Source: SAR324 cluster bacterium
GTDB lineage: Bacteria; SAR324; NAC60-12
NCBI GenBank assembly: GCA_015232315.1
Contig: JADFZZ010000032.1
Coordinates: 796 to 32,795 of the forward strand
Direction of reading: 5' to 3'
Length of the DNA stretch: 32,000 nt
How positions within the stretch are numbered: position 1 is the stretch's first letter; every line of letters starts with the position of its first letter. Shown one piece after another: positions 3,294-30,760 of this stretch. Below the pieces are notes generated by a model. It saw only the letters and a list, made by a program, of their open reading frames with translations, had not been told where the DNA came from and made no database searches. The translations under genes and the position numbers were made by a program.

Positions 3294-3355
3294 AACAGAC
3301 TCCTTTTGTAAATTGAGGTTAATGAGCAACCCGATCAATTTTATTCTTGAGTCTA

Positions 3356-3382
3356 TCATCGGCAGGATTCAAAAAAACTTGA
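3356..3382 (-). promoter_or_regulatory. sigma28 (FliA)-type promoter of the flagellin gene
   Basis: The minus strand reads TCAAGTTT-N11-GCCGATGA, against the consensus TAAAGTTT-N11-GCCGATAA (14/16 matches, exact spacing). It lies about 60 nt upstream of the flagellin ATG at 3293. Confidence 0.72.
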
Positions 3383-4714: not shown

Positions 4715-4755
4715 GATAATCCTCTAAATTGATGAAAGATAGTGATTTGATCAAA

Positions 4756-5493
4756 TTAACGAAGTTTAGGATAGAGATCAAACAGGATCTCTCCGTTTTC
4801 TACAAACACAATTTCAGGTCCAATAAATTCCCTGAGCTGGTGATGTCCGGCAAGCAAATGGGCGATTCGGACCTGACCCGACATAAGCCGTAACCCCATG
4901 ATGGTTGATTTTTCATTTCCTTCAGATCCTGCATGGACAAGTCCACGTATGGTTCCATAAACCCAGATATTCTGCGCTGAAATAATTTCGGCTCCCGGAT
5001 TGATATCCCCCAGGAGAATCACATTACGCGAGGTCCTGATTTTTTGTCCGGAACGCAATGTTTGCCGGACAATAAGCGCATCCTCAAGCACAAGTCCCTG
5101 AGTGATTTCATCCGTGGATGGGGTTTGTTTTTCCAGCATAGTGCCTGAGATGACAGGGGTTTCCTTTTTTTCTGCTGAAGCTTGATCTTCAGACTGAAGA
5201 GGGGGCGCAACGCTGGTTTTCTGCGGTGGAATGGACAGATTGAGTTCCATTTTGCCCTCAGCACTCAGAAGATCACGCAGCATCACAAATTCTTCAGACG
5301 ACAACCGTTTTGCGTCAGACTTCAGAATGATCCTGGAACCATGCAAAAAATGCTTGGCTGATTCCTGATTAATCAAATGGCGGACATCATTCACCAGTTG
5401 ATCAAATGGCAGTGCTTCGTGAATAATCAATGCTAAATGATCCCCAATGCCCTTGATCTCAACAGCTTTTTTAATTTTTCGGGATGAACTCAT
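4756..5493 (-). CDS. minC: Septum site-determining protein MinC
   Basis: C-terminal beta-helix domain RSGQKIRTSRNVILLGDINPGAEIISAQNIWVYGTIRGLVHAG. Position upstream of minDE. Confidence 0.9.
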   Translation of the reverse strand: MSSSRKIKKAVEIKGIGDHLALIIHEALPFDQLVNDVRHLINQESAKHFLHGSRIILKSDAKRLSSEEFVMLRDLLSAEGKMELNLSIPPQKTSVAPPLQSEDQASAEKKETPVISGTMLEKQTPSTDEITQGLVLEDALIVRQTLRSGQKIRTSRNVILLGDINPGAEIISAQNIWVYGTIRGLVHAGSEGNEKSTIMGLRLMSGQVRIAHLLAGHHQLREFIGPEIVFVENGEILFDLYPKLR

Positions 5494-12313: not shown

Positions 12314-12346
12314 TAATATTAAAAACATAAACATATGGAGGTTGAT

Positions 12347-12775
12347 ATGTGGAATAATTCACTCTCAAGAACAGTCAATGCAATGCTGTCGTTACAGGAT
12401 GCGCTTGATCGGGCACATGCCAATGATTTTTTCGGAGGCCACACCACCAGTCGCGGAGTGAATCCGCCTGTAAATCTGTTTGAAAAAGATGGAGATGTGG
12501 TGCTGGTTACTGAACTTCCTGGTGTGCATAAGGAAAACATCAAGATGGAGGTGAAGGAAAATATGATCCGGCTATCCGGTGAACGGAAACTGGATTATAG
12601 CGAAAATTGCAGTTGTCATCGCATGGAGCGTGGCGCATGGAAATTTGATCGATCCATCAAATTACCCTTCCGGGTTGATAATGATAAAATCAGGGCTGAA
12701 CTCAAAAACGGCTTGCTGGTGGTTTCTCTTCCCAGAGCCGAACAGGATAAACCACGGCAAATTGCCATCAATTGA
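12347..12775 (+). CDS. Small heat-shock protein, Hsp20/alpha-crystallin family (copy 1)
   Basis: Alpha-crystallin domain PPVNLFEKDGDVVLVTELPGVHKENIKMEVKENMIRLSGER...FDRSIKLPFRVDNDKIRAELKNGLLVVSLPRAE. Start at ATG 12347, with GGAGG 5 nt upstream. Confidence 0.92.
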   Translation: MWNNSLSRTVNAMLSLQDALDRAHANDFFGGHTTSRGVNPPVNLFEKDGDVVLVTELPGVHKENIKMEVKENMIRLSGERKLDYSENCSCHRMERGAWKFDRSIKLPFRVDNDKIRAELKNGLLVVSLPRAEQDKPRQIAIN

Positions 12776-12816
12776 TAAATAATTATAATCACTGAACCAA
12801 TTGATCAGGAGGTCAT

Positions 12817-13224
12817 ATGAGTATCGAAAATAAAGATCTGAATAAAACAGAGCAGAATGTCACCAAAAAGGAATCTGGTGAGGAAAAAACTGTCGCAGGT
12901 CGATTTTATAGTCCACCGACAGATATCGTTGAAACCGATAAGTCGCTGATTGTGAATATGGACATGCCGGGAGTCTTGAAGGAAAATCTTGCTATCCGTC
13001 TGGAAAACCAGGTGCTGGAAGTGGAGGGACACATTGATTTCAGCCCGTATCAGGGATTGAATCCGATTTATACGGAATACAATGTTGGTCATTACACCCG
13101 CAAATTCACTGTATCCAGTTCGATTAATACGGATAAAATTGAAGCATCTCTCAATGATGGCGTTCTGACATTGACTTTGCCCAAGGCGGAAAAAGCACAG
13201 CCAAGACAGATTCAGATCAGTTGA
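12817..13224 (+). CDS. Small heat-shock protein, Hsp20 family (copy 2)
   Basis: PPTDIVETDKSLIVNMDMPGVLKENLAIRLENQVLEVEG...FTRKFTVSSSINTDKIEASLNDGVLTLTLPKAE. AGGAGG RBS. Confidence 0.92.
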   Translation: MSIENKDLNKTEQNVTKKESGEEKTVAGRFYSPPTDIVETDKSLIVNMDMPGVLKENLAIRLENQVLEVEGHIDFSPYQGLNPIYTEYNVGHYTRKFTVSSSINTDKIEASLNDGVLTLTLPKAEKAQPRQIQIS

Positions 13225-13282
13225 CCATTGATAAGCCCTGTGCCTTGGAGCATGGGGCCTTCAGGAGAACAGGAGGATCTAT

Positions 13283-13474
13283 ATGAGAAAACAGCACGAG
13301 GAAAAGCAATTGACACATGAGGAAATTCAGCAGGCCATGCAAAATTTTCTCGCAAAAGGAAAATCCATTAAAATTCTGGCCCCACAGGAAATATACCAAC
13401 ATGATTATGTCGGTGGATACAACTGGGGACCTTATGAATCAATGGATTCTCTTGATTTTAATACGTTGTCATAA
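13283..13474 (+). CDS. Small hypothetical protein (63 aa) embedded in the hsp20 operon
   Basis: Strong RBS (ACAGGAGGATCTAT-ATG). It sits in its own intergenic slot between hsp20 copies 2 and 3. I recognise no family. Confidence 0.45.
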   Translation: MRKQHEEKQLTHEEIQQAMQNFLAKGKSIKILAPQEIYQHDYVGGYNWGPYESMDSLDFNTLS

Positions 13475-13533
13475 CAAAGGTTTCGCCTAATATTTCGAAG
13501 TATTATTCTTTACTTTTTATGCATGGAGGTCAT

Positions 13534-14055
13534 ATGTCATGGAAAGATTTGATCACATGGAATCAAAAAAAAGATGGATATAATAATCCTGTCAAAGTTG
13601 ACACTGCGATGGATCAACACCCGATGGTGATGTTTCATCGTGAAATGGACCGGCTATTTCAGGATTTTTTCAAGGATTTCTGGTCTCCCTCCACTTTCTG
13701 GGGCCGAGAGGGCGGCAGCATGTTTTCACCGAAACTGAATGTCAGTGAGGATGAAAAACAGATTGATGTGACTCTTGAAATTCCGGGGATGGACGAAAAG
13801 GACATTCGAATTTCCCTGAAGGATGACATTCTGTCCATCAAGGGAACGAAAAATCAGGAAAAAGAAGATAAGCAAAAAGAGTATCACCATATTGAGCGTT
13901 CCTATGGTTCGTTTCAACGATCCATTCAGTTGCCTTGTGAAGTACAGGCTGACAAAGTGCAGGCTTCCTTTAAAAAGGGCGTGTTGTCTGTGACGCTTCC
14001 CAAAGTTGAGAATGCACAATCCAGAGTACGAATCATCCCTGTTCAGGGCAACTGA
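13534..14055 (+). CDS. Small heat-shock protein, Hsp20 family (copy 3)
   Basis: PKLNVSEDEKQIDVTLEIPGMDEKDIRISLKDDILSIKGTK...FQRSIQLPCEVQADKVQASFKKGVLSVTLPKVE. Start at ATG 13534, with GGAGG 4 nt upstream. Confidence 0.92.
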   Translation: MSWKDLITWNQKKDGYNNPVKVDTAMDQHPMVMFHREMDRLFQDFFKDFWSPSTFWGREGGSMFSPKLNVSEDEKQIDVTLEIPGMDEKDIRISLKDDILSIKGTKNQEKEDKQKEYHHIERSYGSFQRSIQLPCEVQADKVQASFKKGVLSVTLPKVENAQSRVRIIPVQGN

Positions 14056-15252: not shown

Positions 15253-16578
15253 ATGCGTCAATTTCGTAAATATGCGGCATGGCTGTTATTGACAGGAGGT
15301 CTCGCAGGATGTTCCTCCTCCGCTGAAGAGGTGGAAAGTGCCCCCAAAGTATCCAGACAAACCATTTATAATCAGTTCATTGATGGTGGAAAAAGCTCAA
15401 TCAGCGTTCTGGAGGAAACCATTGGTGGTAAAAAGCAGATCCGGATTGTGCTGAAAAAAGAGGGCGTTGATTCCAGCATCACACACCCTATCGACAATCC
15501 AAATTTCGTGATCGCAGTCCCACTGCATGATCCTACCAGTGCCAGAGTCGGTATTCAGACCATTGATTTTGAAAATGAAAAACGACGTTTGATTGAAGAA
15601 TTACTGCTGAGGTATATTCCACGTGATCGTTTCAATGTTTCCATTAAACTGTTTTGGGATGAAAAACGACTGGAAGAACTCCAACTCAAGGGGGTGCCAT
15701 TTCAAGAATCAATGGGAAGCACACAACCCGTCCCAACAGCATCAACCAAAGCGCCCGATAAATTGAATTATGAACTGGAACAGGCCGTGATTCGGCAGGA
15801 AACCAGGATTATGCTGGACAACACACTGCCAGCATATCAGGAAAAATTTGTCCGACTGCTACTGCCTTCCCAAACTTTTTTTGTCAAATCACGCGGAGAC
15901 ACGGCCACCGTGGAGCGTGTGATTTTCCCCAAGGCATCACCCGAAAGTATTGCGCCTGAGGAAGAACGACTGATCCGTGAAAAAGTACAGAAAATGATTC
16001 AGGAATATCTGAGTCAGGATGATTTTGTGGTCAATGTCCGGCTCAGTATGAAAGGTGGACAAAACATTCAGAGCATCACTGGACAGGGCGATCAGATTTC
16101 TGTGGCCTCCATGTCCACTGCAACGGATCAGGTGAGTGACCGCATGAATATCAATATCAATGTTCTGCTCAATGATCTGACCTCTCCGGATACCGATGAG
16201 TTTCTCCGCAACACGATTCCCTATGCCATTCACATGGACATGGCGGATGGCGACCAGTTGACCATCACCCGCAAACGGTTTCCGGAAAAAGATTATGGTC
16301 AGATTTCGCCACAACAGGTTGCGCAACTGGAAGAATACAAACGGGAAATTCTTACCGCTTTTGAATCAGGGAATTATGCAGGTGGCCTGGATCTGGTTAA
16401 AAAGGCCATGAAGATCAGTGTAAAACGGGACGACCGCCTGAGTTTGCTAAAAATGCAGGGGTCGCTGTATTTTCTGCTTCAGGACAAACAGCGTGCTCGC
16501 GAAACATGGGAGCATTTGATCAAACTTGATCCGGAAAACGAAGAAGCAAAACAAATGCTTATGAATTTGGTGAAATGA
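15253..16578 (+). CDS. Lipoprotein with two ring-module-like repeats and a C-terminal TPR region
   Basis: Lipobox LLTGGLAG|C (Cys20). Internal modules are RRLIEELLLRYIPRDRFNVSIKL and EERLIREKVQKMIQEYLSQDDFVVNVRL...MNININVLLNDLTSPDTDEFLRNTIPYAIHMDMADGDQLTITRKRF. TPR-like C-terminus (...LKMQGSLYFLLQDKQRARETWEHLIKLDPENEEAKQML). Confidence 0.8.
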   Translation: MRQFRKYAAWLLLTGGLAGCSSSAEEVESAPKVSRQTIYNQFIDGGKSSISVLEETIGGKKQIRIVLKKEGVDSSITHPIDNPNFVIAVPLHDPTSARVGIQTIDFENEKRRLIEELLLRYIPRDRFNVSIKLFWDEKRLEELQLKGVPFQESMGSTQPVPTASTKAPDKLNYELEQAVIRQETRIMLDNTLPAYQEKFVRLLLPSQTFFVKSRGDTATVERVIFPKASPESIAPEEERLIREKVQKMIQEYLSQDDFVVNVRLSMKGGQNIQSITGQGDQISVASMSTATDQVSDRMNININVLLNDLTSPDTDEFLRNTIPYAIHMDMADGDQLTITRKRFPEKDYGQISPQQVAQLEEYKREILTAFESGNYAGGLDLVKKAMKISVKRDDRLSLLKMQGSLYFLLQDKQRARETWEHLIKLDPENEEAKQMLMNLVK

Positions 16579-17855
16579 CCATGAGACTGAAACGATTTGG
16601 ACTGACATTGTTATGTTTGGGACTGACCGGAATGTTTTTCGGAACATTTTACGCGGCAGAACCGGAATCCTCTGCTGTAACCGCAGAAATGCCTAGCAGA
16701 CCTTCCATTTTGCCTGATTCCGCTATGGATATTCCGGCGGAAATGCCAGTTGTGCCAGAAGCACCCGCGACGACTGCGGTGCCTGTTACATCAACCGCGC
16801 CCTCAAAGGCCGCGGACTCTACTGTTGTGCCCCCTGCGCCCGTAAAAGCAGGCAATGCTTCTGCTCCAACGATGCCAGTGCAGGAACAGCCAAGACGGCC
16901 CGAACCACGAAACACCAACGAAATTATTTCCGCGCCCTTTGAACAATTGAAAAAACTGTATGGCAAACCTGAGGGGACAACCCTGGAACAACCAGCAGAA
17001 GTGGACCAGAAACCAAAACAACCTGAAGTTGTTGAAACCAAAACGAAGTCACCGATTGAAGAAATGGATTTGCCTTCGCTTTCAGAGCAACAGGAAACGG
17101 AACGGAATCTTGAGTTCAAACTGGAAACAGCCCTGAAAGAATTATTGCTGGACAAATATGTTCAGGTCAAAGTGATTGTCCATTATCTCGTCAATACTGT
17201 TCCAATCACTGAAAGCAACAAGCAAATATCACAAATGCGGCTTCCGGGATTTAAAAATCAGGTGTGGGTGCCGATTGATCAGAAAAAAGTAACAGGCCTG
17301 GTGCATCGGTTGACACGTTACAACAGTATTTTTGTGGTGGTCAATCAGCCGGTATCACCGTTTGATCTGGAAGTCCTGCGACAAAAACTGAATGCAAAAA
17401 TCGCTGAAATTGATCTGGAAACCAATGATTTTCTTAAAGTCGCTTATGTTCCACTGGCAGAAATGCCAGGAACTGAAAAGCCAATGGCATCCCAACCGGA
17501 AACTCAGTCAGAGGCCACTGATCAGGTTGAAAAAATGCCTGAACCTGAAATAACGCCAGAACCGCCCAAACTTGTTTCAGCCAATGAACAACGCGATGTC
17601 GAAGTAAAATCAGCCAAGCAATTGCTCGAAGCACGCACCGCGTTTTTCAGGAATGACCTGAAAGAAGCGTTGGATAAAATCAATAAAGCCATTGAAATGA
17701 ATCCTGACTCCGCACAGGGCTATGCCATGCTGGGGTCGGTGTATTATCGCCTGAAATGGTATGGACAGGCAAAAAAACACTGGAAAAAATCTCTGGAACT
17801 GGAGCCTGACAATCCTTTGATTGCTCAGTATCTCGAACGATTGGAGAACGAATGA
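16575..17855 (+). CDS. Secreted or anchored Pro/Ala-rich protein with a ring-module-like domain and C-terminal TPR
   Basis: N-terminal hydrophobic signal (LTLLCLGLTGMFFGTFYA|AEP) and a ~140-aa P/A/T/E-rich linker. The module is LEFKLETALKELLLDKYVQVKVIV...SIFVVVNQPVSPFDLEVLRQKLNAKIAEIDLETNDFLKVAYVP. The TPR is AQGYAMLGSVYYRLKWYGQAKKHWKKSLELEPDNP. The ATG at 16575 overlaps the upstream TGA; an alternative ATG is at 16581. Confidence 0.8.
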   Translation: MTMRLKRFGLTLLCLGLTGMFFGTFYAAEPESSAVTAEMPSRPSILPDSAMDIPAEMPVVPEAPATTAVPVTSTAPSKAADSTVVPPAPVKAGNASAPTMPVQEQPRRPEPRNTNEIISAPFEQLKKLYGKPEGTTLEQPAEVDQKPKQPEVVETKTKSPIEEMDLPSLSEQQETERNLEFKLETALKELLLDKYVQVKVIVHYLVNTVPITESNKQISQMRLPGFKNQVWVPIDQKKVTGLVHRLTRYNSIFVVVNQPVSPFDLEVLRQKLNAKIAEIDLETNDFLKVAYVPLAEMPGTEKPMASQPETQSEATDQVEKMPEPEITPEPPKLVSANEQRDVEVKSAKQLLEARTAFFRNDLKEALDKINKAIEMNPDSAQGYAMLGSVYYRLKWYGQAKKHWKKSLELEPDNPLIAQYLERLENE

Positions 17856-19744
17856 TGGCACGCTATCTTAAAACAGGTTGGATCTGTCTGTTGCTGAGCC
17901 TATGCGTTTCAGGGCATGTATGGGCTGAAGAACGCATCACATCCCTGCCTGCGAAACAGTATGAAATTGAATCGGCCATTCACAACAGCCTGCGGCATTA
18001 TATGGAACCACAGGACTATGTGATCAAAGTCTGGCTGAAGGGAAAGAAAAAAACCATTGAGACCTTCCCTTTCAAAAATTTCAGTTCATCAACGGATGAA
18101 GTCCTGCCCGGATTCGGTACACCGCCCTCGCCTGTAACCAACGAAGACCCTGTCGCCGTTGAAGGCGAAACTTACTGGGTTGTGGAACAGATGCGTGTGG
18201 ATTTGATTCTTTACAAAGAAATATCTCCATCGCTGGCCACCTATATCACAGAGATCATTCCCGTCTTAAGCGGAATGAATTCTCAACGTGGCGATGTATT
18301 CAATTTTATGCCGATCAAACCCAAACCACTTGAAAGCGACAGTCCCAGACCGTTGAATCCTGATGGCAGTGCCATGGATGGTGCGTCGTCATCTTCAGAT
18401 CAGGCTGTCGCCACACCTGAACCGGAACCAACCCTTGAACAAATGCTGATTCCGCAAACACCAATGGAATGGCTACAGGCAGGGGTGAGTTTGCTGTTAT
18501 TGCTCCTGATCCTCTTTATTTTCTGGAGAATCATTAAATTACAGAAACAGCAGAAAGCCGCGCAGGCCGCCCAGGAAAAATCCGCTGTGGACATCCGGGA
18601 TCTGGTGCCTTCTCCGCAAAACGCCATCGCGACGATTCAACAGGCTCGTCAAGATCTGGTGCGCCGGCAGGATGAGCATGTTCAGGAAATATTGCTGGTT
18701 GAAGAAAACAACCGGCTTTTGCAGGAAATCATCAAACAACTGGTAGGACGTGAAGACTGGAAACAGCATCTGATTGAGGAAATGACACGGGATAAACAGT
18801 CCACCGAAGCCTTCACACGGTTGCTGGCCATGATGGGACCCCAGACGGCCCGCCGGCTGTTTTCCGAACAGTTGGGACATGAGGCCTATCTGGATCTGGA
18901 ACAACTGGCCCGGGATCTTTCGTTCACACCACAAGAGGCCAATTCGATTCTGAAGGATATCTGGACATTTTTATTCACTAAAAAGCTGACCTTGCCTGAA
19001 AAAGTAGCGACGGATCCTTTTGGTTATCTGTTGAAATTGTCTACCGGGCAAATCGCGTTTTTGCTCAAGGATGAACCGGTCAAAATCAAGGCACTGGTTG
19101 TCAGTCGCCTGAACAGTGAACAGGCAACAGAAGTGATCGGACATTTCCCGAAAGATGAACGGACTCAGGTCATGCTGCATCTGGGCAAGATGGAGGAACT
19201 TCCTCTCGAACTGGTGTCGCAGGTCGCTTATAATCTGGCTGACAAGGTACGAAGCCTGCCTGACAGCAATACTGTCGCGGTCAATGGAGTGAATCTCGTG
19301 ATTGATGTCCTGGGTGAGGTCGAACATGGAGTTCGGCAGGACATCATCAACGGCTTGCGGATTTCTGATCAGCGTTTGAGTGATATGGTGGAAAGCCGGT
19401 GTTTCATTTTTGAATCCATTCCGTTTGTACCCAAAGAAGTTTTGATGGAAGTGGTCCGTCGTTTACCGCTGGATGATGTCATTATTGCGATCTCCGGTGC
19501 GACAAAAGAAATCAAGGAAGCCGTCATCCTGTGTTTTCCTGAGCAAAACCGTCAGGCGATTGTATCTGCCTTGAAAGCAAAAACACCATCCCCGGATGAC
19601 ATTCGGGAAAAACGCAGGGTGTTTGCCCAATCCATGCGTGGCATGGCAGAAAACAACAGGGTCGATTTGAAAGAAATCAACACCGCGTGGGCCCAACAGC
19701 ACGATGCTGTTCCAGCCCTGAATTTTGAACAGCAGGAGTCATAG
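17852..19744 (+). CDS. Bitopic membrane protein: periplasmic FliF/YscJ-like module, one TM helix, cytoplasmic FliG-like (middle + C-terminal) domain
   Basis: Signal peptide ...CVSGHVWA|EE and TM helix SLLLLLLILFIFW (aa ~206-226). The C-terminal ~230 aa align by eye to FliG: LLKDEPVKIKALVVSRLNSEQATEVIGHFPKDERTQVMLHLGKM; NGVNLVIDVLG; CFIFESI (cf. MFVFEDI); AISGATKEIKEAV (cf. ALKGAS.E.KEK). GGAG RBS, and the ATG overlaps the upstream stop (ATGA). Confidence 0.85.
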   Translation: MMARYLKTGWICLLLSLCVSGHVWAEERITSLPAKQYEIESAIHNSLRHYMEPQDYVIKVWLKGKKKTIETFPFKNFSSSTDEVLPGFGTPPSPVTNEDPVAVEGETYWVVEQMRVDLILYKEISPSLATYITEIIPVLSGMNSQRGDVFNFMPIKPKPLESDSPRPLNPDGSAMDGASSSSDQAVATPEPEPTLEQMLIPQTPMEWLQAGVSLLLLLLILFIFWRIIKLQKQQKAAQAAQEKSAVDIRDLVPSPQNAIATIQQARQDLVRRQDEHVQEILLVEENNRLLQEIIKQLVGREDWKQHLIEEMTRDKQSTEAFTRLLAMMGPQTARRLFSEQLGHEAYLDLEQLARDLSFTPQEANSILKDIWTFLFTKKLTLPEKVATDPFGYLLKLSTGQIAFLLKDEPVKIKALVVSRLNSEQATEVIGHFPKDERTQVMLHLGKMEELPLELVSQVAYNLADKVRSLPDSNTVAVNGVNLVIDVLGEVEHGVRQDIINGLRISDQRLSDMVESRCFIFESIPFVPKEVLMEVVRRLPLDDVIIAISGATKEIKEAVILCFPEQNRQAIVSALKAKTPSPDDIREKRRVFAQSMRGMAENNRVDLKEINTAWAQQHDAVPALNFEQQES

Positions 19745-19765: not shown

Positions 19766-20725
19766 ATGAAAGACACCATTGGCACACTTCTGGGCTTTTT
19801 AATTGGTATTTCCCTCGTCTTGTTTGGAATCACCTGGCCTGATCATTTGTCCAACTATTACATGTATCAGTTGCGCGAATATGAAATGGCCACAAAGCAG
19901 ATGAAAAAAGACGGGGTGCCTCGCAACCAGATTCAGGAACTTGAACAGAAATTCTCAGAGTTTCAGGATTCATGGATCGGAACCATGTCCCGCTTTATTG
20001 ATCTCAAATCGTTTTTGATTGTGATGGGCGGCGCCTATTCCGCGATGATGGTCGCGTTTCCGTTTGACAAGGCGATGGGGGCTTTTGTGTTCATTGTCAG
20101 GGTGTTTGCGTCATCCGTGAAGAAGGAAGAATTTCTGGATGTGTATCACACCGTTCTCAAACTGGCTGAAAAACGAGTGAACAATGCCATCCTCACCGAT
20201 GAGGATATCAATGCTATTCATTCAGTGGATCTAAAACGTTGGGTTCAGGATTTCATTGTGGTCGATATCGTTGAAGAAAACATGATTGAGGAAATTGTTC
20301 GATCGGAAATTGAAATGTACAATTATCGTTCTTTTGAAGAAATTGATGTCCTCAATTTTCTTGGTGCCGCGTCTCCCGCTTTTGGAATGCTCGGTACCGT
20401 GGTTGGTCTGATTCTGATGCTGGGAAATACGGGTGGTGATGTAGCCGGTGTGATGGGGGGAATGTCCATTGCGTTGATCACGACATTGTATGGAGTGTTT
20501 CTGGCCCAGATCATGTTTTTGCCGATAGCATCCAAACGCTATCAAATGAAAGAGTCGCACATCATGTTGCTGGAAATGATCAGAGAAGGTCTGCTCTATC
20601 TCAAACGGCGTGAAATTCCTGATACGATCTCCCAGGATTTAATCATTTATCTGCCTCTCAAAATGCGTCAGAAAATCACTGAAGAAAAAATGGCGGCGAT
20701 GCGTGAGGGTAATTTGGGATTGTGA
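19766..20725 (+). CDS. motA: MotA/PomA-family stator channel protein with an enlarged first periplasmic loop
   Basis: SPAFGMLGTVVGLILML and GGMSIALITTLYGVFLAQIMFLPIASK match MotA TM3/TM4, including both conserved prolines. There is a ~50-aa insertion between TM1 and TM2. Confidence 0.9.
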   Translation: MKDTIGTLLGFLIGISLVLFGITWPDHLSNYYMYQLREYEMATKQMKKDGVPRNQIQELEQKFSEFQDSWIGTMSRFIDLKSFLIVMGGAYSAMMVAFPFDKAMGAFVFIVRVFASSVKKEEFLDVYHTVLKLAEKRVNNAILTDEDINAIHSVDLKRWVQDFIVVDIVEENMIEEIVRSEIEMYNYRSFEEIDVLNFLGAASPAFGMLGTVVGLILMLGNTGGDVAGVMGGMSIALITTLYGVFLAQIMFLPIASKRYQMKESHIMLLEMIREGLLYLKRREIPDTISQDLIIYLPLKMRQKITEEKMAAMREGNLGL

Positions 20726-20728
20726 TCT

Positions 20729-21376
20729 ATGGCCAATCGAAAAGACGCATCAACCGAAACCCCTGCATGGGTGGTTTCTTTTGCCGATCTGATGAGCTTG
20801 CTGTTCAGCTTTTTTGTGCTGCTCACCACACTTTCCACTCAGCCGAAAAATTGCGAGGGCATCCGTGAATATATGGAAAACAACAAGGCGTTTTTTAAAA
20901 ACTATGAACTTCGATCCACTAAACTGAGTTGCATTGTTTCCTTACCTCAAGATTATCTGTTCAAATCAGGACAAGGCAAAATCCAGCCTTCGGCCTTCAA
21001 AGCGCTCACTCCATTTTTTGAGAAAATCCGCGATCTGCCGGAACATCGTGAAGATCTGTTGATTGTGGAAGGTCACACCGACAATGTGCCCATCCATACC
21101 CGTGAATTTCCCAGCAATTGGGAACTCAGCTCGGCCAGAGCCACCAATATTTCCGTATTCATGATGGAAAAACTCAAATTTGCCCGCGAACGACTGTCCG
21201 TTTCGGCCTATGCGGATTCGCGTCCCAAAACCCCCTATGTAGACACTTACGGCAAACCATTAACCGGCAAGGACCTCCAGAATGCTCGACAAACCAACCG
21301 TCGAGTTGAAATCATTCTGACAACACCCCCCAAATCCCTTGAGGAAACCACCATGCTGTTTGATGGTCGGGAATAA
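20729..21376 (+). CDS. motB: MotB-family stator protein (OmpA-like peptidoglycan-binding C-domain)
   Basis: PAWVVSFADLMSLLFSFFVLL carries the conserved channel Asp. OmpA_C motifs are VEGHTDNVPI, SNWELSSARATNISVFM, YADSRP and NRRVEI. It starts 3 nt after the motA-like stop. Confidence 0.9.
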   Translation: MANRKDASTETPAWVVSFADLMSLLFSFFVLLTTLSTQPKNCEGIREYMENNKAFFKNYELRSTKLSCIVSLPQDYLFKSGQGKIQPSAFKALTPFFEKIRDLPEHREDLLIVEGHTDNVPIHTREFPSNWELSSARATNISVFMMEKLKFARERLSVSAYADSRPKTPYVDTYGKPLTGKDLQNARQTNRRVEIILTTPPKSLEETTMLFDGRE

Positions 21377-21842: not shown

Positions 21843-22427
21843 ATGAAAATGTTCAAACAATGGAAAAAAAGATGGGCTGGATTCAGTCTTGTAGAAATTG
21901 TAATCGCCATCGCGGTCATCGGGATCATGTCTGCGGCGTCAGTGCCCCTGATCAAAAGCACACTCGATAAATCAAAAAATTCCCGCGCAAAAAGCGAACT
22001 GGAAGAAATACGAAATGCGTCTGTGTCATTTTATGGCGATACCTTTCAGGTTCCCGGTAATATTGGATGTACCAAGACAGCCACAACCCATCTGCTGACA
22101 GATACAGCAGCGGCAAAAATTGACATGTCCAAAGCAGGGACTGTGACATCTGATGATCTGGATGCGCATTTCAATACGAACTGTACAGGTGCCAATGCCG
22201 GTAAATATACAGACAATAGCTTGGGTGGCGCCTGGAGAGGCCCATACATGGAAGCTGATCGCTATGATCCATGGCAAAAATCTTATGTATTGGTCACAAA
22301 TACATTTGGAACTACTGATACCGCATCCGGTTATGCTCTTTCCGGTGGAACCGATGAGCAGGTCAACACTGCCAAGGCTACAGCCGCAAGTACCAGTGAT
22401 GTATATATCAAAGTCAGTCTGAAATAA
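21843..22427 (+). CDS. Type II secretion pseudopilin / type IV pilin-like protein (GspG-like), orphan
   Basis: Prepilin signal KRWAG|FSLVEIVIAIAVIGIM (Gly-1, Phe+1, Glu+5). GspG-like motifs are WRGPYM and DPWQKSY. Start at ATG 21843, with GGAGG 4 nt upstream. Confidence 0.85.
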   Translation: MKMFKQWKKRWAGFSLVEIVIAIAVIGIMSAASVPLIKSTLDKSKNSRAKSELEEIRNASVSFYGDTFQVPGNIGCTKTATTHLLTDTAAAKIDMSKAGTVTSDDLDAHFNTNCTGANAGKYTDNSLGGAWRGPYMEADRYDPWQKSYVLVTNTFGTTDTASGYALSGGTDEQVNTAKATAASTSDVYIKVSLK

Positions 22428-22438
22428 TTTTTCCTCAT

Positions 22439-22459
22439 AAGGCGGGTCACTCCCGCCTT
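22439..22459 (+). terminator. Rho-independent terminator after the pseudopilin gene
   Basis: AAGGCGGG-tcact-CCCGCCTT followed by TCTTTT. It overlaps the stop codon of the convergent minus-strand gene. Confidence 0.7.
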
Positions 22460-25341
22460 TCTTTTAGCTGACGATTCAGCTCTTCAAAGTGATTTCCCAT
22501 CCAACTCAACAGTTTCTTCTCATGCGGTGGAAAGCGTGTGTCAGACATGATGAATGTCTGGAAAATTTGAAGATACATGGCTTTTTCTCCGGCTTTCAGC
22601 ATTTCGACCTCCATTGCGCTCAGAAATACAGGATTGTATTTGGGCGGTGATGAATTTTGCAGGATGTTCCTGATTAAATCTTTCAGGTGATCCAACTGGT
22701 CCGTATACAGAAAATCCAGAAACAGAAATTCATCCTGAAACTTTTTTGGGGGAATATCCTTTCGGACTAGCTCACGATACAATGTGACAGCTTCCAGTTT
22801 ATCCCACATTTGTGCCATATTTCTGGGGTGCGTGATTTTTTTGAATTGATGATCAATCTCATTCCAGTTGGAATTTTTGCGGGCAATTCGCAGGGAATCT
22901 GTCAGCCATTCCAATTTTTCTGAAGGAATTGGCGGAGCATTTTTAAAATAATCTGTTTGAGCTCTGGAAAAATTTTCTGGTTCCAGAATTTCCTGATAAA
23001 ATGAAATAGCATTTATAAATGACCAGAACAAATCCACTTCCTGACTCAGAAACAACGCTTTTTCCGCACTGTTATCAACCAGAGGGAAAAAATATGAATT
23101 GGGATTCACATCTTCCAGAATAGGGCGTAGACTCTGGGTTGAAACAATAAAATTCTGAGGGCCGAACAAACGGGTATCCCCCTTGAATTTCAAAAATTCC
23201 TGAGCAATCTCTGGTTCTCGTTCAAAACGATCAATGGCATCCAGATTGAAATCAGTGTTGCCTGCAACAATCACATAATTTGCTTCACCAGCCAGATATA
23301 TTTTTGCGTAGGGAAAACGATTATCCAGAGCCTTGATAATGGTCAGCATGAGTTCTGTGTTGAAGGAATAACCATGGACCCATTGGACCAGTAAGCCTTC
23401 TGGTTTTAGAAATCGTTGGATGTGCTCGTAGAATTCTTCGGTGAACAGGCTCGAAACACCACTGACCCAAGGATTTGATGGTTCTGAAATGATAAGGTCA
23501 TATTGTCTGTTGGCCTGATAGAAATAGGTTTTGGCATCATCAAAAATAGGACGGATTTTGGGACTGTCATACACATTTCGATTATAAGGATAGAAATTTT
23601 TTGCCAATTCATACATCTGTTCTTCAATTTCGATCAAATCCAGATGTTTTAACAAGGGGTCGGATAGCAGATAGTGTGCAGACATACCACTGCCCAACCC
23701 GATCATTGCGGCGTCATAAGGCTGATTCATCGCAGCCATCGGAACAAACGCGGCAGCGGCCTGAGTATATTCATCTTCAGATATGGTGCCTTTCAATCCG
23801 ATACTCGCATCAACCTTGCCATTTGTTGCGATCATTGACCTGAATGGATTGAACGTGAATGAGATGGTTGCTGTTTTTCCATCCTTGACGAGTATTTGAT
23901 GAAAATCTCCGGCATTCAGCTTGCCACGAAAAACACCTATTGTGGTAAGATTCGGGTCAAGTTTGATATGCAATACAGGAATAAAGACCAGCACAGAAAC
24001 GCAGAGTGTCGCAATGAACTTCCATCGGGAAAGCTTATAGGCACCCAGCAGCACAAGTCCCAGACCGATATCAATCAAAGCTCCTGAGGCAATGGTGTAT
24101 TTGATCTGAAAATTCGGCAATAGCAATAACCCTCCCAGAGAGGCGCCAAGTATGGCTCCTATCGTATTCCAGCCATATACAAATCCAGTGTATTTTTCAT
24201 TGCGTGTAAAATTGATCAGATAATAAGTGATCAATGGCAGTGTCATTCCCGCAAAGAAACTGGTGGGTGCCATCATCAATAGGCAGATCAGATATTTGAA
24301 TATGGAATAGACTGGATAGGCGAGTTCTGTTTTTCTGAATACAGAATGTGAGTCGCTGATCGCGTAAAAAAACGGCTCGTAAAAATAGATGCTGCTCAAC
24401 GCAAACGCCCCCATGAGAATCTGGATGAAAGCCAACGTATGCGCGATGTTTCGTGAAGAGTCAATCAGCTTGCGGGCATAACCGCCTCCCAGGGCCAACC
24501 CCAGGATGAACGCGGAAATCATGATATCAAACGAATGGGTTGAAGATCCCAGCAACAACCCCAGAAGCCTGATCCAGCCAACTTCGTAAATGAAGGATGA
24601 AAACCCTGTCAGACCGCTGATCAACAACCATAGTCCAATGGTGCGCTGATCCGGAAGTTCATGTGAAATTTCCTTGTGAGATTCCGCACCGGAAAAAGAT
24701 TCTGTTATTTTGGGGCCAATGATTTTATCAGCTTTTTTGGCGATGAAATAAAACATCAATGCAATCAGTACATTGGAAGAACCAGCAATGGCGAGAGTTC
24801 CTATGGTTCCCATTTCCGGAATGAGCAGATAGGAAGTCGCCAGAATTCCAATGGCGGCACCCAGAGAATTGGTGAAATATAACACAGGCAGTGAAGAACG
24901 TCCTTCATCTCTGCTGACACGAATGACACCCACTGTGATGAATGGAAAAGTCATTCCAAGCAGGATCGCGGTCGGGAGCGTCATCAGCATGGAGATCAGC
25001 ACCTTGGTCAGATTGGCAAACCAGAAAGACGAAAAATATACATTGGCGGCTTCATAAAACCATTGGGTACAGACTAGATAAATTCCGTGGAAGACAAAAC
25101 CTGAAACGCCCACCAGCAACTCAATGGCAGCATAGACATAAAATGGATTCCGGATATTCCGACAGAGTCGTCCTGCCAGAAACGACCCGATGCCGAGTCC
25201 ACCCATAAAAATGGAAAGTGTCAGGATCTGACCATAAAACGAATGTCCGAGAAATAATTTAAGATACCGGGACCACAGTGATTCATAAATAAGACCAACA
25301 AATCCTGAAACAACGAACAGACCATAAATCAGGCGAACCAT
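22447..25341 (-). CDS. Fused polytopic membrane domain + spermidine-synthase-like (aminopropyl/methyltransferase fold) protein with a long C-terminal extension
   Basis: The N-terminal ~450 aa have many hydrophobic helices. The central region MIGLGSGMSAHYLL...LDLIEIE...DLIISEPSNPWVSGVSSLFTEEFY...LKPEGLLVQW is a spermidine synthase family signature. The track start at 25347 is a TTG; ATG 25341 is preferred. Confidence 0.85.
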   Translation of the reverse strand: MVRLIYGLFVVSGFVGLIYESLWSRYLKLFLGHSFYGQILTLSIFMGGLGIGSFLAGRLCRNIRNPFYVYAAIELLVGVSGFVFHGIYLVCTQWFYEAANVYFSSFWFANLTKVLISMLMTLPTAILLGMTFPFITVGVIRVSRDEGRSSLPVLYFTNSLGAAIGILATSYLLIPEMGTIGTLAIAGSSNVLIALMFYFIAKKADKIIGPKITESFSGAESHKEISHELPDQRTIGLWLLISGLTGFSSFIYEVGWIRLLGLLLGSSTHSFDIMISAFILGLALGGGYARKLIDSSRNIAHTLAFIQILMGAFALSSIYFYEPFFYAISDSHSVFRKTELAYPVYSIFKYLICLLMMAPTSFFAGMTLPLITYYLINFTRNEKYTGFVYGWNTIGAILGASLGGLLLLPNFQIKYTIASGALIDIGLGLVLLGAYKLSRWKFIATLCVSVLVFIPVLHIKLDPNLTTIGVFRGKLNAGDFHQILVKDGKTATISFTFNPFRSMIATNGKVDASIGLKGTISEDEYTQAAAAFVPMAAMNQPYDAAMIGLGSGMSAHYLLSDPLLKHLDLIEIEEQMYELAKNFYPYNRNVYDSPKIRPIFDDAKTYFYQANRQYDLIISEPSNPWVSGVSSLFTEEFYEHIQRFLKPEGLLVQWVHGYSFNTELMLTIIKALDNRFPYAKIYLAGEANYVIVAGNTDFNLDAIDRFEREPEIAQEFLKFKGDTRLFGPQNFIVSTQSLRPILEDVNPNSYFFPLVDNSAEKALFLSQEVDLFWSFINAISFYQEILEPENFSRAQTDYFKNAPPIPSEKLEWLTDSLRIARKNSNWNEIDHQFKKITHPRNMAQMWDKLEAVTLYRELVRKDIPPKKFQDEFLFLDFLYTDQLDHLKDLIRNILQNSSPPKYNPVFLSAMEVEMLKAGEKAMYLQIFQTFIMSDTRFPPHEKKLLSWMGNHFEELNRQLKERRE

Positions 25342-25595
25342 AGACAATTCTCAAGAGAAGAGGATATTAAAAATAAAAATGCATAGCAGATGTTATTCAT
25401 GACGGTCAAGTGCGATTCTTTTCAAACAGAATATTGCTATCCGTCGCAGAATGTATTAGTTGTTCCCTGCTGGTAATCTGGACTTTCCCTATGGGATTCT
25501 GAGCTATTTTCCCGGAGGGGTAAATGAATCATCCTTAGCGTGAAAAATTAAAATCCATTCGTGTAACGTGTTCATGTTTTATTAATCTTTATTCA

Positions 25596-27829: not shown

Positions 27830-28333
27830 ATGGTCATGATTAAATTAAGAGATTCCATTTTTGTAATTCGCCCGGCTACACCGCAGGATGTCCCGGTGAT
27901 TTTACAACTGATCAGGGACTTGGCTGACTATGAAAAATTAAGTCAGGAAGTTTGCGCCACGGAATCCCTGTTGCACCAGGCCCTGTTTGAACAATATTCC
28001 GCAGAAGTTTTACTGGGATTTATGGATCATCAGCCTGTCGGAATGGCTGTTTTTTTTCATAGCTGTTCCACATTTCTGGGGCGTCACGGTATTTATCTGG
28101 AAGATCTTTATGTGCGACCGGAATTCAGAGGTAAAGGGTTGGGAACTTCTTTGCTGAAAGAAATTGCCCGCTTGGCTGTTGAACGGAAATGCGGCCGAAT
28201 TGAATGGGCTGTGCTCAATTGGAACACTTCCGCGATTGAGTTTTATGAAAATCTTGGCGCTTCTCCACTGAGTGGCTGGACCACGTATCGTCTTACTGGA
28301 AATGCCCTGGAAAAATTCGCGCTGAGTGATTAA
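27830..28333 (+). CDS. GNAT-family N-acetyltransferase (diamine/SSAT-like)
   Basis: IRPATPQDVPVILQLIRDLADYEKL...LEDLYVRPEFRGKGLGTSLLKEIARLA...IEWAVLNWNTSAIEFYENLGA contains the acetyl-CoA motif R-x-x-G-x-G. An alternative ATG is at 27836. Confidence 0.88.
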   Translation: MVMIKLRDSIFVIRPATPQDVPVILQLIRDLADYEKLSQEVCATESLLHQALFEQYSAEVLLGFMDHQPVGMAVFFHSCSTFLGRHGIYLEDLYVRPEFRGKGLGTSLLKEIARLAVERKCGRIEWAVLNWNTSAIEFYENLGASPLSGWTTYRLTGNALEKFALSD

Positions 28334-28349
28334 CCATCATAGGAATAAT

Positions 28350-29051
28350 ATGGGATCGAAAAAAACAATTGACAAACTTGCTAAAATTTTCGGAGATGCC
28401 GCCGTCGAAGTGCTCTCCAACTCCAGTGGCGCGGATATTTATTTTGCACCCACTGTTCAGAAAGTGGATCTCATTTATCTCAAACCGGATATTGGCACGT
28501 TTGTACAGTTTCGTGGCGATTATTCAGGCCTGGTGATTGTGAATTTCACCAAGGAAGCCGCTATGGAGTATTACCGCATGTCCATGCTGAACATGGGCTT
28601 TCCAGCAGAGGAACTGGCCATTGACCATACTGCTGATGATGTGGTGGACAGTATCGGTGAAAGTGTGAATCAATTGATCGGAAAAGCCCGGCAAATGATT
28701 CAGGAAGAATATGGCCTGTCCTCCTACAACAACCAGCCCAAAGCGGTTTGTCTGATGGAATCCATCCTGCTTTCAATCAACACCATGATTCATCACAAAC
28801 CCTCAGATTGCCGCAGATTGTCCTTTCGTATTTCAGGTCGGCATACGTTTCATATTGAAATGTTCATTGAACAGACAGAGTTCATTATACTTGACCCTGA
28901 ACGTCTGAAAGCCGGCCAACAAAAAAGCAGTAACCGTGACCTTGATATTGATGCCATGATGGATGCTGAAAAAGCTGATAAAAAAGAAAAAGAAACGGTC
29001 GCGGCAACCAACAACCTTGATATTGAAGCATTATTGAATGCCAATCGTTAG
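28350..29051 (+). CDS. CheX/CheC-family CheY-P phosphatase-like protein with a charged C-terminal tail
   Basis: Exact phosphatase consensus D-x3-E-x2-N-x22-P: DSIGESVN-(22 aa)-P at aa 108-138 of the track ORF. N-terminus is CheX-like (LAKIFGDAAVEVLSNSSG). Start at ATG 28350 (AGGA upstream). Confidence 0.72.
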   Translation: MGSKKTIDKLAKIFGDAAVEVLSNSSGADIYFAPTVQKVDLIYLKPDIGTFVQFRGDYSGLVIVNFTKEAAMEYYRMSMLNMGFPAEELAIDHTADDVVDSIGESVNQLIGKARQMIQEEYGLSSYNNQPKAVCLMESILLSINTMIHHKPSDCRRLSFRISGRHTFHIEMFIEQTEFIILDPERLKAGQQKSSNRDLDIDAMMDAEKADKKEKETVAATNNLDIEALLNANR

Positions 29052-29065
29052 TCCTGAGCTGCTTA

Positions 29066-30760
29066 ATGACTATTGAAAAATCCGCTTACAAAATATTGCT
29101 GATCAGCCAGAATAATGAAGATCGTACCCGCCTGCAAAATCATCTGGATGCCATCAAGGTTGCCACAATCCATCTGGATCAGGAAACGCTCTTTGAACAG
29201 GCCCGGGAATTGATTCTGGAGGCCAAATATGATGCCTATCTGATTGACTATGACATTCTTCCTGAATCAGCCTTGGCACTGGTGCAGAGCGTTTATGAAG
29301 ACTGCGCAAAACCACTGATCATCATCGACGAACAGGAACAGTATGAGCGGGACATTGCGGCAATGGAAGCCGGAGCAAGTTATTACCTGCCCAAAAAACA
29401 TATTGTTCCCTCCATTCTTGAACGGTTACTCCGCTACAACATCTACTATAGCTCCACCCGTGATGAGTTGCAGAATTTTCTGGAAATCCAGAATACAATC
29501 TCTGGAAATCTACTGGAAACCGCCAGTCAACTCAAAGTCGCAAAAGATGAACTGCAACAGAAAAATACTGAAATGCTGGCCAGTCATCGCAAACTGGAAG
29601 ACCTGAATCAGACCAACCAGCAGTTTTTAAATATCGCGCTCAAACTTTATAAAAACCATTTCATTCCGTTGCGCGAAAATATTGAAAACATGCTGAACTC
29701 CGTAGTCCTTGACACGAAGGAAGGCATTCGTCAGGCGGCCCGGGAAATCCACCAGATGGATGAACTCCTGCGTCCTGTAACTCTTTTGGGTACGGAACAG
29801 GCGGCCATTCACAAAAAACGGGTGCTGTTGGCTGAACTGGACCGTAAACAACAGATTGTCGCAAAAATGGCGCTGGGAGGAACAGGCATTGACTTTGATA
29901 TTGTAGCTGATTTCACTGAGGGTGAGGAACGCCTCAAAACTTCACGTTATGATATACTTTGTGTCGATCTGGGATTTATTGAACTGGCACGCATGGCCCA
30001 TGAACAATATCCGGAAACACAGATTGTGTTCATGACCTCGGCCAATGCTCCGGCTTATCTGCCGATCATCATCAAGTTGCCGTTTCTTTCCAATATTGTT
30101 TCAAGAGATAAGGAGGACCGCACCTTTACCCTGAAAAATATTCTGGTTACCATCAGCAAACTGCTCACCGATGATTTATTCGGACTGGAAAAGTATATGA
30201 GTTGGGGGGTTGAAGTGCATCAAATGGTCATTCGATCCAGTCGGGAACGCGCGGAAATGGTGGAAAACATGGAACGGATTCTGGATCAGTTCGGTGTTCA
30301 TCGTTCCGTGATCCGCAAAGCAGGAATGGTGGCGGAAGAATTGTTGATGAACGCAATTTATGACGCGCCTCACAGTGCCGATGGGAAACCTCTGTATAAC
30401 CATCTTTCACGGATAAACCCGGTGGAATTGCCACTCAATGAGCAGGGAATTTTCCGGTTTGCCTGCGACGGGATGTTGCTGGCGCTTTCTGTTCAGGATC
30501 CCTTTGGTGCTCTGGGGCGCCACACAATTCTGAATTATTTGCAAAAATCCTATCTGAATCGGAATCTGGCGGAGGATAGTCAGGAAAAAATGAATAAGGG
30601 CGGAGCCGGATTGGGACTGTTCCAGATCATGTCCGCCTCCGACCTGTTTGTGATCAATGTCAAACCGGGCGTCAGGACAGAGGTGATTGTAGTGTTCAAT
30701 ATTGATCCTGATAAACCTAAAAACACACCATCCACATCATTTCAATATTTTTGTCATTAA
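29066..30760 (+). CDS. Dual receiver (REC-REC) protein fused to an RsbW/SpoIIAB-type GHKL serine-kinase/anti-sigma domain
   Basis: REC1: KILLISQNNED...YDAYLIDYDI...PLIIID...GASYYLPKK. A coiled coil follows. REC2: RVLLAELDRK...YDILCVDLG...QIVFMTSANA. The C-terminus has N-box VAEELLMNAIYDAP and G-box GGAGLGLFQI. Confidence 0.72.
   Translation: MTIEKSAYKILLISQNNEDRTRLQNHLDAIKVATIHLDQETLFEQARELILEAKYDAYLIDYDILPESALALVQSVYEDCAKPLIIIDEQEQYERDIAAMEAGASYYLPKKHIVPSILERLLRYNIYYSSTRDELQNFLEIQNTISGNLLETASQLKVAKDELQQKNTEMLASHRKLEDLNQTNQQFLNIALKLYKNHFIPLRENIENMLNSVVLDTKEGIRQAAREIHQMDELLRPVTLLGTEQAAIHKKRVLLAELDRKQQIVAKMALGGTGIDFDIVADFTEGEERLKTSRYDILCVDLGFIELARMAHEQYPETQIVFMTSANAPAYLPIIIKLPFLSNIVSRDKEDRTFTLKNILVTISKLLTDDLFGLEKYMSWGVEVHQMVIRSSRERAEMVENMERILDQFGVHRSVIRKAGMVAEELLMNAIYDAPHSADGKPLYNHLSRINPVELPLNEQGIFRFACDGMLLALSVQDPFGALGRHTILNYLQKSYLNRNLAEDSQEKMNKGGAGLGLFQIMSASDLFVINVKPGVRTEVIVVFNIDPDKPKNTPSTSFQYFCH

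Follow-up and report, generated by a model that had tools for sequence, protein, structure and literature searches.

Four FliF RBM3-like modules on three consecutive proteins, a FliG-like fusion and a MotA/MotB-type stator in a SAR324 cluster bacterium: a candidate envelope-spanning machine related to the flagellar motor

What kind of apparatus is encoded by a short gene row in which repeated ring-building modules stand beside FliG-like domains and a MotA/MotB-type stator? The row lies on a stretch of 32,000 nucleotides (nt) from a SAR324 cluster bacterium, here called the window, and coordinates are positions of that whole stretch unless another locus is named. Four consecutive genes were named P0, P1, P2 and P3, and the modules were named L1 and L2 (both in P1), PR (in P2) and FG (in P3); all four resemble ring-building motif 3 (RBM3) of the flagellar protein FliF. 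The analysis leans slightly towards a proton-driven, flagellar-motor-derived machine that spans the envelope and does without type III export apparatus, rod, hook and switch complex.

All six genes of the row are on the + strand: P0 (14234-15211), P1 (15253-16578), P2 (16575-17855), P3 (17852-19744), MotA (19766-20725) and MotB (20729-21376). The P1/P2 and P2/P3 junctions are ATGA start/stop overlaps, and the intergenic spacing is 21 nt before motA and 3 nt before motB. P1 is a lipoprotein (lipobox LAGC, Ser at +2) made up of an N-terminal domain, two RBM3-like modules and a tetratricopeptide repeat (TPR) tail (16303-16578; Pfam TPR_2 at amino acids (aa) 399-429). Module L1 covers aa 96-225 (15538-15927) and runs helix-strand, an insert of about 50 aa, then strand-helix-RGD-strand, and module L2 covers aa 226-350 (15928-16302) with a short and degenerate insert. 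P2 begins with a hydrophobic anchor or signal and continues with a Pro-rich linker, the single module PR (aa 166-300; 17070-17474), which has a long conserved beta-hairpin with an LPGF tip, and a TPR tail (17562-17855; TPR_2, E 3.6e-10). In P3 (630 aa), the periplasmic RBM3-like module FG occupies aa 26-165 (17927-18346).

The first-pass annotation of this DNA had proposed that one two-part module recurs in P1 (twice), P2 and P3. Every peptide that it quoted was located: RDRFNVSIKL at P1 aa 124-133 (15622-15651), QDDFVVNVRL at P1 aa 255-264 (16015-16044), LDKYVQVKVIV at P2 aa 192-202 (17148-17180) and PQDYVIKVWL at P3 aa 53-62 (18008-18037). The strand-S/T-P-helix-strand stretches were placed at P1 aa 298-338, P2 aa 251-291 and P3 aa 114-152, and the first P1 copy was found to have its own second half as well, RIMLDNTLPAYQEKFVRLLLPSQTFFVKSRGDTATVERV. 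BLASTP alignments between the four segments were collinear and weak, and not significant alone. Module profiles built from 22-28 orthologues per protein were compared with hhalign, which gave its strongest matches for L1-L2 (98.7% probability, E 1.7e-16) and L2-FG (98.4%, E 9e-15), followed by L1-FG (88%, E 2.8e-6) and L2-PR (87.5%, E 3.6e-6). The pairs PR-FG (10%) and L1-PR (2.8%) were weak, and unrelated parts used as controls (TPR tails, FliG part, P0 and P1 N-terminus) reached at most 1.1%. An independent profile from 45 distant P3-type modules matched all four modules (L1 E 2.9e-17, L2 E 4.5e-18, FG E 1.4e-13, PR E 2.4e-6) over 121-128 columns each, with controls below 1%. A phmmer search with the window P3 aligned aa 38-167 over the whole of L1 in P1 orthologues and aa 113-153 over L2. 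As full-length profile matches were obtained to all four modules, the distant profile included, the proposed paralogy was borne out by profile comparison, by which the four modules are homologous and PR is the most diverged copy.

A chance or compositional likeness, in which the four segments share only a generic amphipathic helix and strand, would be in keeping with pairwise identities of 12-25%, with the weak BLASTP E-values, with the non-significance of PR-FG and L1-PR alone and with the failure of the FG profile to retrieve FliF from PDB sequences. It does not account for full-length collinear profile matches at E 1e-14 to 1e-18 against controls of at most 1.1%, for the phmmer alignment of P3 with both P1 modules in orthologues, for the RGD and LPGF motifs common to the modules, or for the independent convergence of Pfam, PDB sequence search and fold search on FliF. 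Chance resemblance was refuted for L1, L2 and FG, and for the four segments together it was judged extremely improbable.

The core [DQ][DK][FY]V.[NK]V, which had been read as the common signature of the modules, did not hold up: it varies, and amounts to no more than a hydrophobic strand pattern. Superfamily-wide conservation was seen instead in RGD (xxD in P2), immediately ahead of the last strand, and in LPG[FL], within the insert. Among 114 long P3 relatives, LPG[FLIMV] was present in 97 and RGD in 92, in the N-terminal part. The P2 family alignment was gap-free with an invariant LPGF. In the window P1 the LPGF tip has decayed and the inserts of L1 and L2 are short and degenerate, and in the clade of loci L017, L018, L020 and L025 the tip is intact in both P1 modules.

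Structure prediction with AlphaFold2 (AF2) gave the P3 module a predicted local distance difference test score (pLDDT) of 78.5, with a helix at residues 7-22, a strand at 31-43, a low-confidence insert, a strand at 82-95, a helix at 101-115 and a strand at 124-129. The P2 module was modelled at pLDDT 80, with helices at 4-25 and 97-110 and strands at 30-56, 65-91 and 121-126; strands 30-56 and 65-91, each of 27 residues, form the hairpin with LPGF at its tip (pLDDT about 85). Both models have an alpha-beta-beta-alpha-beta topology with the insert between the first two strands, and the same wedge topology is assigned to L1 and L2 through homology (E 1e-14 to 1e-16). Foldseek searches against PDB showed that the top 17 matches of the P3 module were all FliF S-ring/RBM3 (8z4d, E 9e-6; 6sd1, E 1.4e-4), as were the top 16 matches of the P2 module (best E 2e-6), after which came SpoIIIAG (5wc3, E 5e-4) and then PrgK (2y9j_Y, E 5e-3). 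For both modules the FliF S-ring matches had probability 1.00 and a TM-score of about 0.4-0.53. The expectation of RBM-type folds was thus supported by AF2 wedges whose best PDB match was FliF, followed by SpoIIIAG and PrgK.

Sequence searches gave FliF as well. In six of nine P1 relatives scanned, Pfam PF08345 (YscJ_FliF_C) scored above its gathering threshold on the second half of L1 (25-28 bits vs 23.8), and 17 of 54 diverse P3 relatives matched it at E 0.01 or better (best E 7e-8); as single sequences, the window P1 and P3 gave no PF08345 match at E<1 and E<0.1, respectively. The L1 profile searched against PDB sequences retrieved FliF (12dr_A, E 3e-4) in two pieces exactly flanking the collar (FliF 246-296 and 425-450), and the same search with the FG profile found no FliF. 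When each module profile was aligned by hhalign with the single E. coli FliF RBM3 sequence, only a local match in the RGD region was obtained (probability at most 3%). The RBM3 end of E. coli FliF, EKRGDSLNVVNSPF, and the L1 consensus RGDxVxVERTSF have a common RGD-x-strand-F ending. In addition, PDB 9yh6 chain Oj (144 residues, named FliF, 34 copies) aligned full-length with the L1 profile (query 11-130, chain 15-143); this match (E 0.8) was not significant. The models and matches support a specific assignment of the modules to RBM3 of FliF; like the FliF collar and the corresponding part of SpoIIIAG, the insert is placed between beta1 and beta2 in the models.

FliF RBM3 (PF08345; 6sd1, 8z4d) and the modules are alike in the order alpha-beta-[insert]-beta-alpha-beta, in that FliF gave the best fold matches of the modules, with PF08345 and solved-FliF sequence matches in addition, and in the RGD before the last strand with a terminal aromatic residue. 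RBM3 is followed by the second transmembrane segment (TM2) in FliF, as the module is followed by a membrane helix in P3. The modules differ from FliF in that the insert is 20-55 aa rather than about 110 aa, and is a simple LPGF-tipped hairpin in P2 and, at low model confidence, in P3, and degenerate in the window P1. RBM1 and RBM2 are absent. Of the three proteins that share the four copies, two do not span the membrane and have TPR repeats at their C-terminal end. SpoIIIAG and SctJ/PrgK share the RBM fold, and SpoIIIAG also has an insert between beta1 and beta2; however, both rank clearly below FliF and gave no sequence-level match, and the sporulation or type III secretion gene context is absent here.

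P3 joins such a module to FliG-like domains in one chain. Its order is signal peptide, RBM3-like module, acidic/Pro linker of about 50 aa, a single membrane helix at about aa 205-228 (18464-18535; hydrophobic run WLQAGVSLLLLLLILFIFWRII) and a cytoplasmic region with FliG-like N, M and C domains (18719-19681), delimited by Pfam, by the NCBIfam fliG model and by alignment with E. coli FliG. Pfam matches were FliG_M (E 2e-14) and FliG_C (E 7.5e-14). In the 54 diverse P3 relatives, FliG_M and FliG_C were present in all 54 and FliG_N in 45, and PF01514 (YscJ_FliF, the RBM1-RBM2 region) had no match in P1, P2, P3 or any of the 54. Since the RBM3-like module, the membrane helix and FliG N/M/C are in one chain, P3 amounts, in its domains, to FliG naturally fused to the C-terminal half of FliF (RBM3 and TM2). 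It scored 74.1 bits against the NCBIfam fliG equivalog TIGR00207, below the cutoff of 226.7. In a MAFFT alignment with E. coli FliG the FliM-binding EHPQ was lost, with only the Glu kept (DEPVK in the window), and R160 was not conserved. By these criteria P3 departs from an orthodox FliF, having no RBM1/2, and equally from an orthodox FliG, being far below the equivalog cutoff and devoid of EHPQ and of the torque-helix charges.

The window P3 is 100% identical to a protein annotated as hypothetical in a SAR324 cluster bacterium metagenome-assembled genome (MAG). A P3 profile search of 1.84 billion representative proteins, clustered at 50% identity, returned 3014 matches at E 1e-3 or better, 764 of them at E 1e-10 or better. 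The architecture survey covered 148 newly listed proteins among the best 150 of the 3014 matches. A large proportion (114) were at least 450 aa long, and in these the module was matched in 102, and 100 have a hydrophobic helix directly following it, in a corresponding position. At least 100 representative clusters among the best 150 matches therefore share the P3 architecture. None of 20 distant relatives was annotated more precisely than as hypothetical or FliG C-terminal domain-containing; their MAGs carry the labels Pseudomonadota, Deltaproteobacteria and Bacteroidota.

The nearest described natural analogue of P3 is the FliF-FliG fusion of Chlamydiaceae, a protein of about 330 aa with RBM2, one RBM-like domain and FliG_M only (Bergeron 2016, PMC4768692), which is thought to work with the injectisome (PMC4768692). 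Engineered Salmonella/Vibrio FliF-FliG fusions are reported to form S-rings (PMC11481574). In each of these, as in P3, one chain joins an MS-ring-type periplasmic domain to a membrane helix and a cytoplasmic FliG-type domain, which fixes the stoichiometry at 1:1. P3 differs from the chlamydial protein in its length (630 aa), in having RBM3 only, in carrying FliG N/M/C and in being encoded with MotAB, to which the chlamydial protein is not linked; the engineered fusions, unlike P3, retain full-length FliF.

P0 (14234-15211) has a signal peptide, a periplasmic N-terminal domain with an invariant CxxC, a C-terminal outer-membrane beta-barrel and an aromatic last residue. Its orthologues have a signal peptide and, in all cases, an aromatic end, and an OMP_b-brl match on the C-terminal half was obtained in 6 of 13 (best E 8.7e-5). 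The window P0 itself had no Pfam or NCBIfam match, and the P0 profile found nothing among PDB sequences. In the P0 alignment (A7), C98 and C101 were invariant and the C-terminal motif was GWxF; the CxxC of the periplasmic N-terminal domain is CDEC in the window and is kept across the 13 orthologues. Distant clusters have a P0 homologue, encoded by a gene of about 360 aa (E 1e-9 to 1e-11; L028, L029 and L033 compared), and P0 is a core component of the system. For P1, placement in the outer membrane is inferred because it has Ser at +2, which under the proteobacterial sorting rule directs a lipoprotein to the outer membrane.

The TPR tails of P1 and P2 matched each other (hhalign 97%, E 2.8e-11), and small TPR lipoproteins of distant clusters matched both tails (P2: E 1e-10 to 1e-19) and carried no RBM module. 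The number of RBM3-like modules in P1 is two in the window and three in L026 (L026 4571-6181). In the L017/L018/L020/L025 clade, P1 has two modules and is not a lipoprotein, and a separate 214-aa lipoprotein combines the P1 N-terminal domain with TPR (L018 5043-5687). In the loci compared, fusion of RBM3 modules to TPR proteins (P1, P2) was confined to the SAR324-related lineage, so on comparative grounds it is a lineage-specific elaboration. TPR stator scaffolds such as PflA/PflB, MotC/MotK and FlcB are alike in being TPR proteins that accompany MotAB-type stators in the periplasm (PMC13023049), and unlike in that they are described without RBM domains, whereas the tails here are short (about 90 aa) and RBM3-fused in the SAR324 lineage.

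The stator subunits are encoded directly after P3. The MotA-type subunit (19766-20725) matched MotA_ExbB (E 2.7e-21) and the MotB-type subunit (20729-21376) matched MotB_plug (E 2.2e-10) and an OmpA-like peptidoglycan-binding domain (E 7.3e-13), with the channel Asp in SFADLM. The nearest NCBIfam models to MotA were MotP, PomA and MotA rather than ExbB/TolQ, and the best of them, MotP, scored 122 bits, below its cutoff of 394. The equivalents of MotA P173 and P222 were conserved, E98 was mostly conserved, and the MotB channel Asp was conserved in all clusters examined. With the MotB Asp and the MotA P173/P222 equivalents conserved, the stator looks functional, as judged from its residues. Between TM1 and TM2 the SAR324-type MotA carries an extra stretch of about 45-50 aa (aa about 27-75, WPDHLSNYYMYQL...) that is specific to the lineage: neither E. 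coli MotA nor the MotA proteins of the distant clusters L028-L034 have it. This insertion would lie on the periplasmic side, where it could touch the additional rings.

These stator and FliG data bear on a reading in which the modules build a static periplasmic conduit or scaffold, comparable to the SpoIIIAG/AH channel or the SctJ/SctD rings, and MotAB acts on P3 as a Tol/Ton-like force transducer that gates or remodels an outer-membrane process via P0, with no continuous rotation. SpoIIIAG and PrgK are indeed among the fold matches, the torque-helix charges are not conserved, and the system includes an outer-membrane barrel protein and lipoproteins, like Tol-Pal. However, FliG_M and FliG_C were kept in all 54 relatives scanned, and to our knowledge the only established rotor function of these domains is torque reception from MotA; the stator is also nearer to MotA/PomA than to ExbB/TolQ. 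A static conduit was considered unlikely. Tol-Pal (with the TPR protein CpoB) and the GldLM motor of type IX secretion (with the GldK/N ring) may be compared by analogy only, as combinations of an inner-membrane ion-driven motor, lipoproteins, a TPR protein and outer-membrane components; both are 5:2-type ion motors that act through TolA or GldM and not through a FliG-like ring.

Gene context was examined across genomes. A total of 27 related loci were retrieved, all from SAR324 or from MAGs labelled 'Deltaproteobacteria'/Lambdaproteobacteria. The P0-P1-P2-P3 synteny was found in every SAR324 locus long enough to show the order, and MotAB was adjacent in six SAR324-lineage loci, in two different orders. 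Seven distant genomic contexts (L028-L034) were examined in addition. L028, L029, L032 and L034 contained a P3-like gene, the gene of about 360 aa, a small TPR lipoprotein, MotA and MotB, and L033 contained the five genes in another order; in L030 and L031 a TPR protein and a gene of about 215 aa accompanied the P3-like gene, and MotAB was absent from the vicinity. No other flagellar genes were found within 8-10 kb of the seven distant P3-like clusters. As the five genes occurred together in five of the seven distant contexts, the widespread core is, by gene content, P0, a TPR lipoprotein, P3, MotA and MotB.

Two of the seven distant clusters have a small stand-alone PilZ-domain protein encoded no more than a few kb away (L030 6456-6797, - strand; L034 2278-2652, - strand). 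YcgR exerts cyclic di-GMP control on flagellar motors, and the PilZ neighbours may hint at a similar control here, or could be a coincidence. A gene for a CsgG/LpoB/FlgO-like lipoprotein (L034 45-770, - strand) lies about 7 kb upstream of one distant cluster.

The window also encodes, elsewhere (1674-3359, - strand; 3935-5493, - strand; 28326-30760, + strand), a 561-aa flagellin, MinD, MinC, a CheX-like protein (DUF3334) and a response-regulator protein. Given the flagellin, CheX-like and response-regulator genes, the organism is probably flagellated and chemotactic. The same genes would suit a reading in which P1-P3 are an accessory periplasmic scaffold of an ordinary flagellar motor (cf. the H/T rings, the PflA/PflB cage, the spirochaete collar and MotC/MotK), ringing the MS ring and recruiting MotAB, with P3 as a membrane-tethered FliG paralogue. 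The flagellar MotA/PomA/MotP type of the stator agrees with this, as do the TPR proteins, which are typical stator scaffolds (PMC13023049), and the location of MotAB elsewhere in most marine SAR324 loci is expected if it is shared with the flagellum. Yet P3, with its own FliF-type ring domain and complete FliG-like domains, would duplicate the rotor and not decorate it, the FliM-binding motif is absent from P3, and the distant five-gene clusters, one of them in a Bacteroidota-labelled MAG, stand alone over the 8-10 kb around them, in which no flagellar genes were found. An accessory scaffold was likewise rated improbable.

In the favoured reading, a flagellar-motor-derived envelope machine, P3 would oligomerise into an inner-membrane ring whose FliG-like face is cytoplasmic, and peptidoglycan-anchored MotA/MotB units would push the FliG-like ring using the proton gradient. 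P2, with one module, and P1, with two, would build further periplasmic rings on or around the P3 collar, and their homologous TPR tails would link these rings to the stators, to peptidoglycan or to P0. The machine would deliver an output at the outer membrane. Periplasmic TPR proteins scaffold stators in several flagellar motors (PMC13023049). The three-ring stack between the membranes and the role of the TPR tails as stator or peptidoglycan adaptors, both predicted in the first-pass annotation, are plausible in this arrangement. RBM1 and RBM2 house the export gate in established FliF structures, and a P3 that has neither argues for a motor without an export gate; loss of the FliM-binding EHPQ argues for a rotor without a switch complex.

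Several observations weigh against this reading. The torque-helix charges K264, D288, D289 and R297 were not conserved in P3, being uncharged or variable in the MAFFT alignment, on which the result depends, and only a basic residue near R281 recurred among these positions in that alignment-dependent comparison. The rotor-contact charge R90 of MotA was not conserved either (MAFFT), so the rotor-stator contact differs from that of E. coli or may not be a torque interface. Most marine SAR324 loci, as well as L030 and L031, had no MotAB within 8 kb of the cluster. Ring formation is predicted from homology, the P3 insert was modelled at pLDDT 52-56, and the alignment (A6) behind the PR model included paralogous modules, hence that model is not fully independent. 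All carriers found are uncultured and have no known phenotype, and the flagellin encoded by the same organism makes a flagellum-linked role possible.

A further-reaching form of the proposal is that the five-gene set is a stand-alone proton-driven rotary motor, without export apparatus, rod, hook, filament or switch complex, that turns outer-membrane-coupled periplasmic rings in many uncultured lineages, as a stripped-down descendant or surviving relative of the flagellar rotor-stator core. This is put forward tentatively, as a possibility that we would bet somewhat against. Its lineages would be SAR324, other Pseudomonadota-labelled MAGs and at least one Bacteroidota-labelled MAG, and the periplasmic part would have grown in SAR324 by duplication of the module onto TPR proteins.

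A search of the literature on membrane-anchored or non-flagellar FliG systems with MotAB, and of the Pfam and NCBIfam libraries, found no description of this gene set. The families are known; the novelty lies in how they are arranged, with four RBM3 modules spread over three proteins, an RBM3-TM-FliG fusion that occurs naturally, and a five-gene set that is conserved with MotAB and without an export apparatus. We know of the FliG and MotAB rotor-stator pair almost only within the flagellum, and the origin of the flagellar motor is an open question. In the present gene set, which is compact and conserved in about a hundred diverged protein clusters, an S-ring domain is combined with FliG and MotAB in the absence of the export apparatus. 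Should the machine work independently, it would be a minimal natural rotor for structural and single-molecule work; if the proposal is true, it would also offer a concrete test case for models of flagellar origin and would point to a proton-driven envelope process in abundant ocean bacteria (SAR324). The paralogous modules of P1 and P2 show that RBM3 can be reused outside FliF, as a putative portable ring-builder.

Among the neighbouring genes, three tandem Hsp20/alpha-crystallin genes lie directly upstream of the row on the same strand (12335-12775, 12817-13224 and 13519-14055; span 12335-14055, + strand), and inspection of the other SAR324 loci showed no such genes ahead of P0. A prepilin-like gene (KRWAG|FSLVEIVIAIAV; GspG/PilA-like) is located at about 21843-22427 (+ strand), 430 nt past motB, and a pilin-like open reading frame was found upstream of motA in locus L018 (908-1297). 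A functional link between the cluster and the prepilin-like gene was dropped, as the strict prepilin motif occurred in the window alone and a pilin-like reading frame in one other locus. The E-ring was also set aside as a match, since the review in question concerns a different protein family. A strong terminator-like hairpin (22439-22459) follows 3' of the prepilin-like gene, and a 966-aa multi-pass membrane protein with a spermidine-synthase-like domain, encoded at 22447-25347 (- strand), converges on this cluster terminator.

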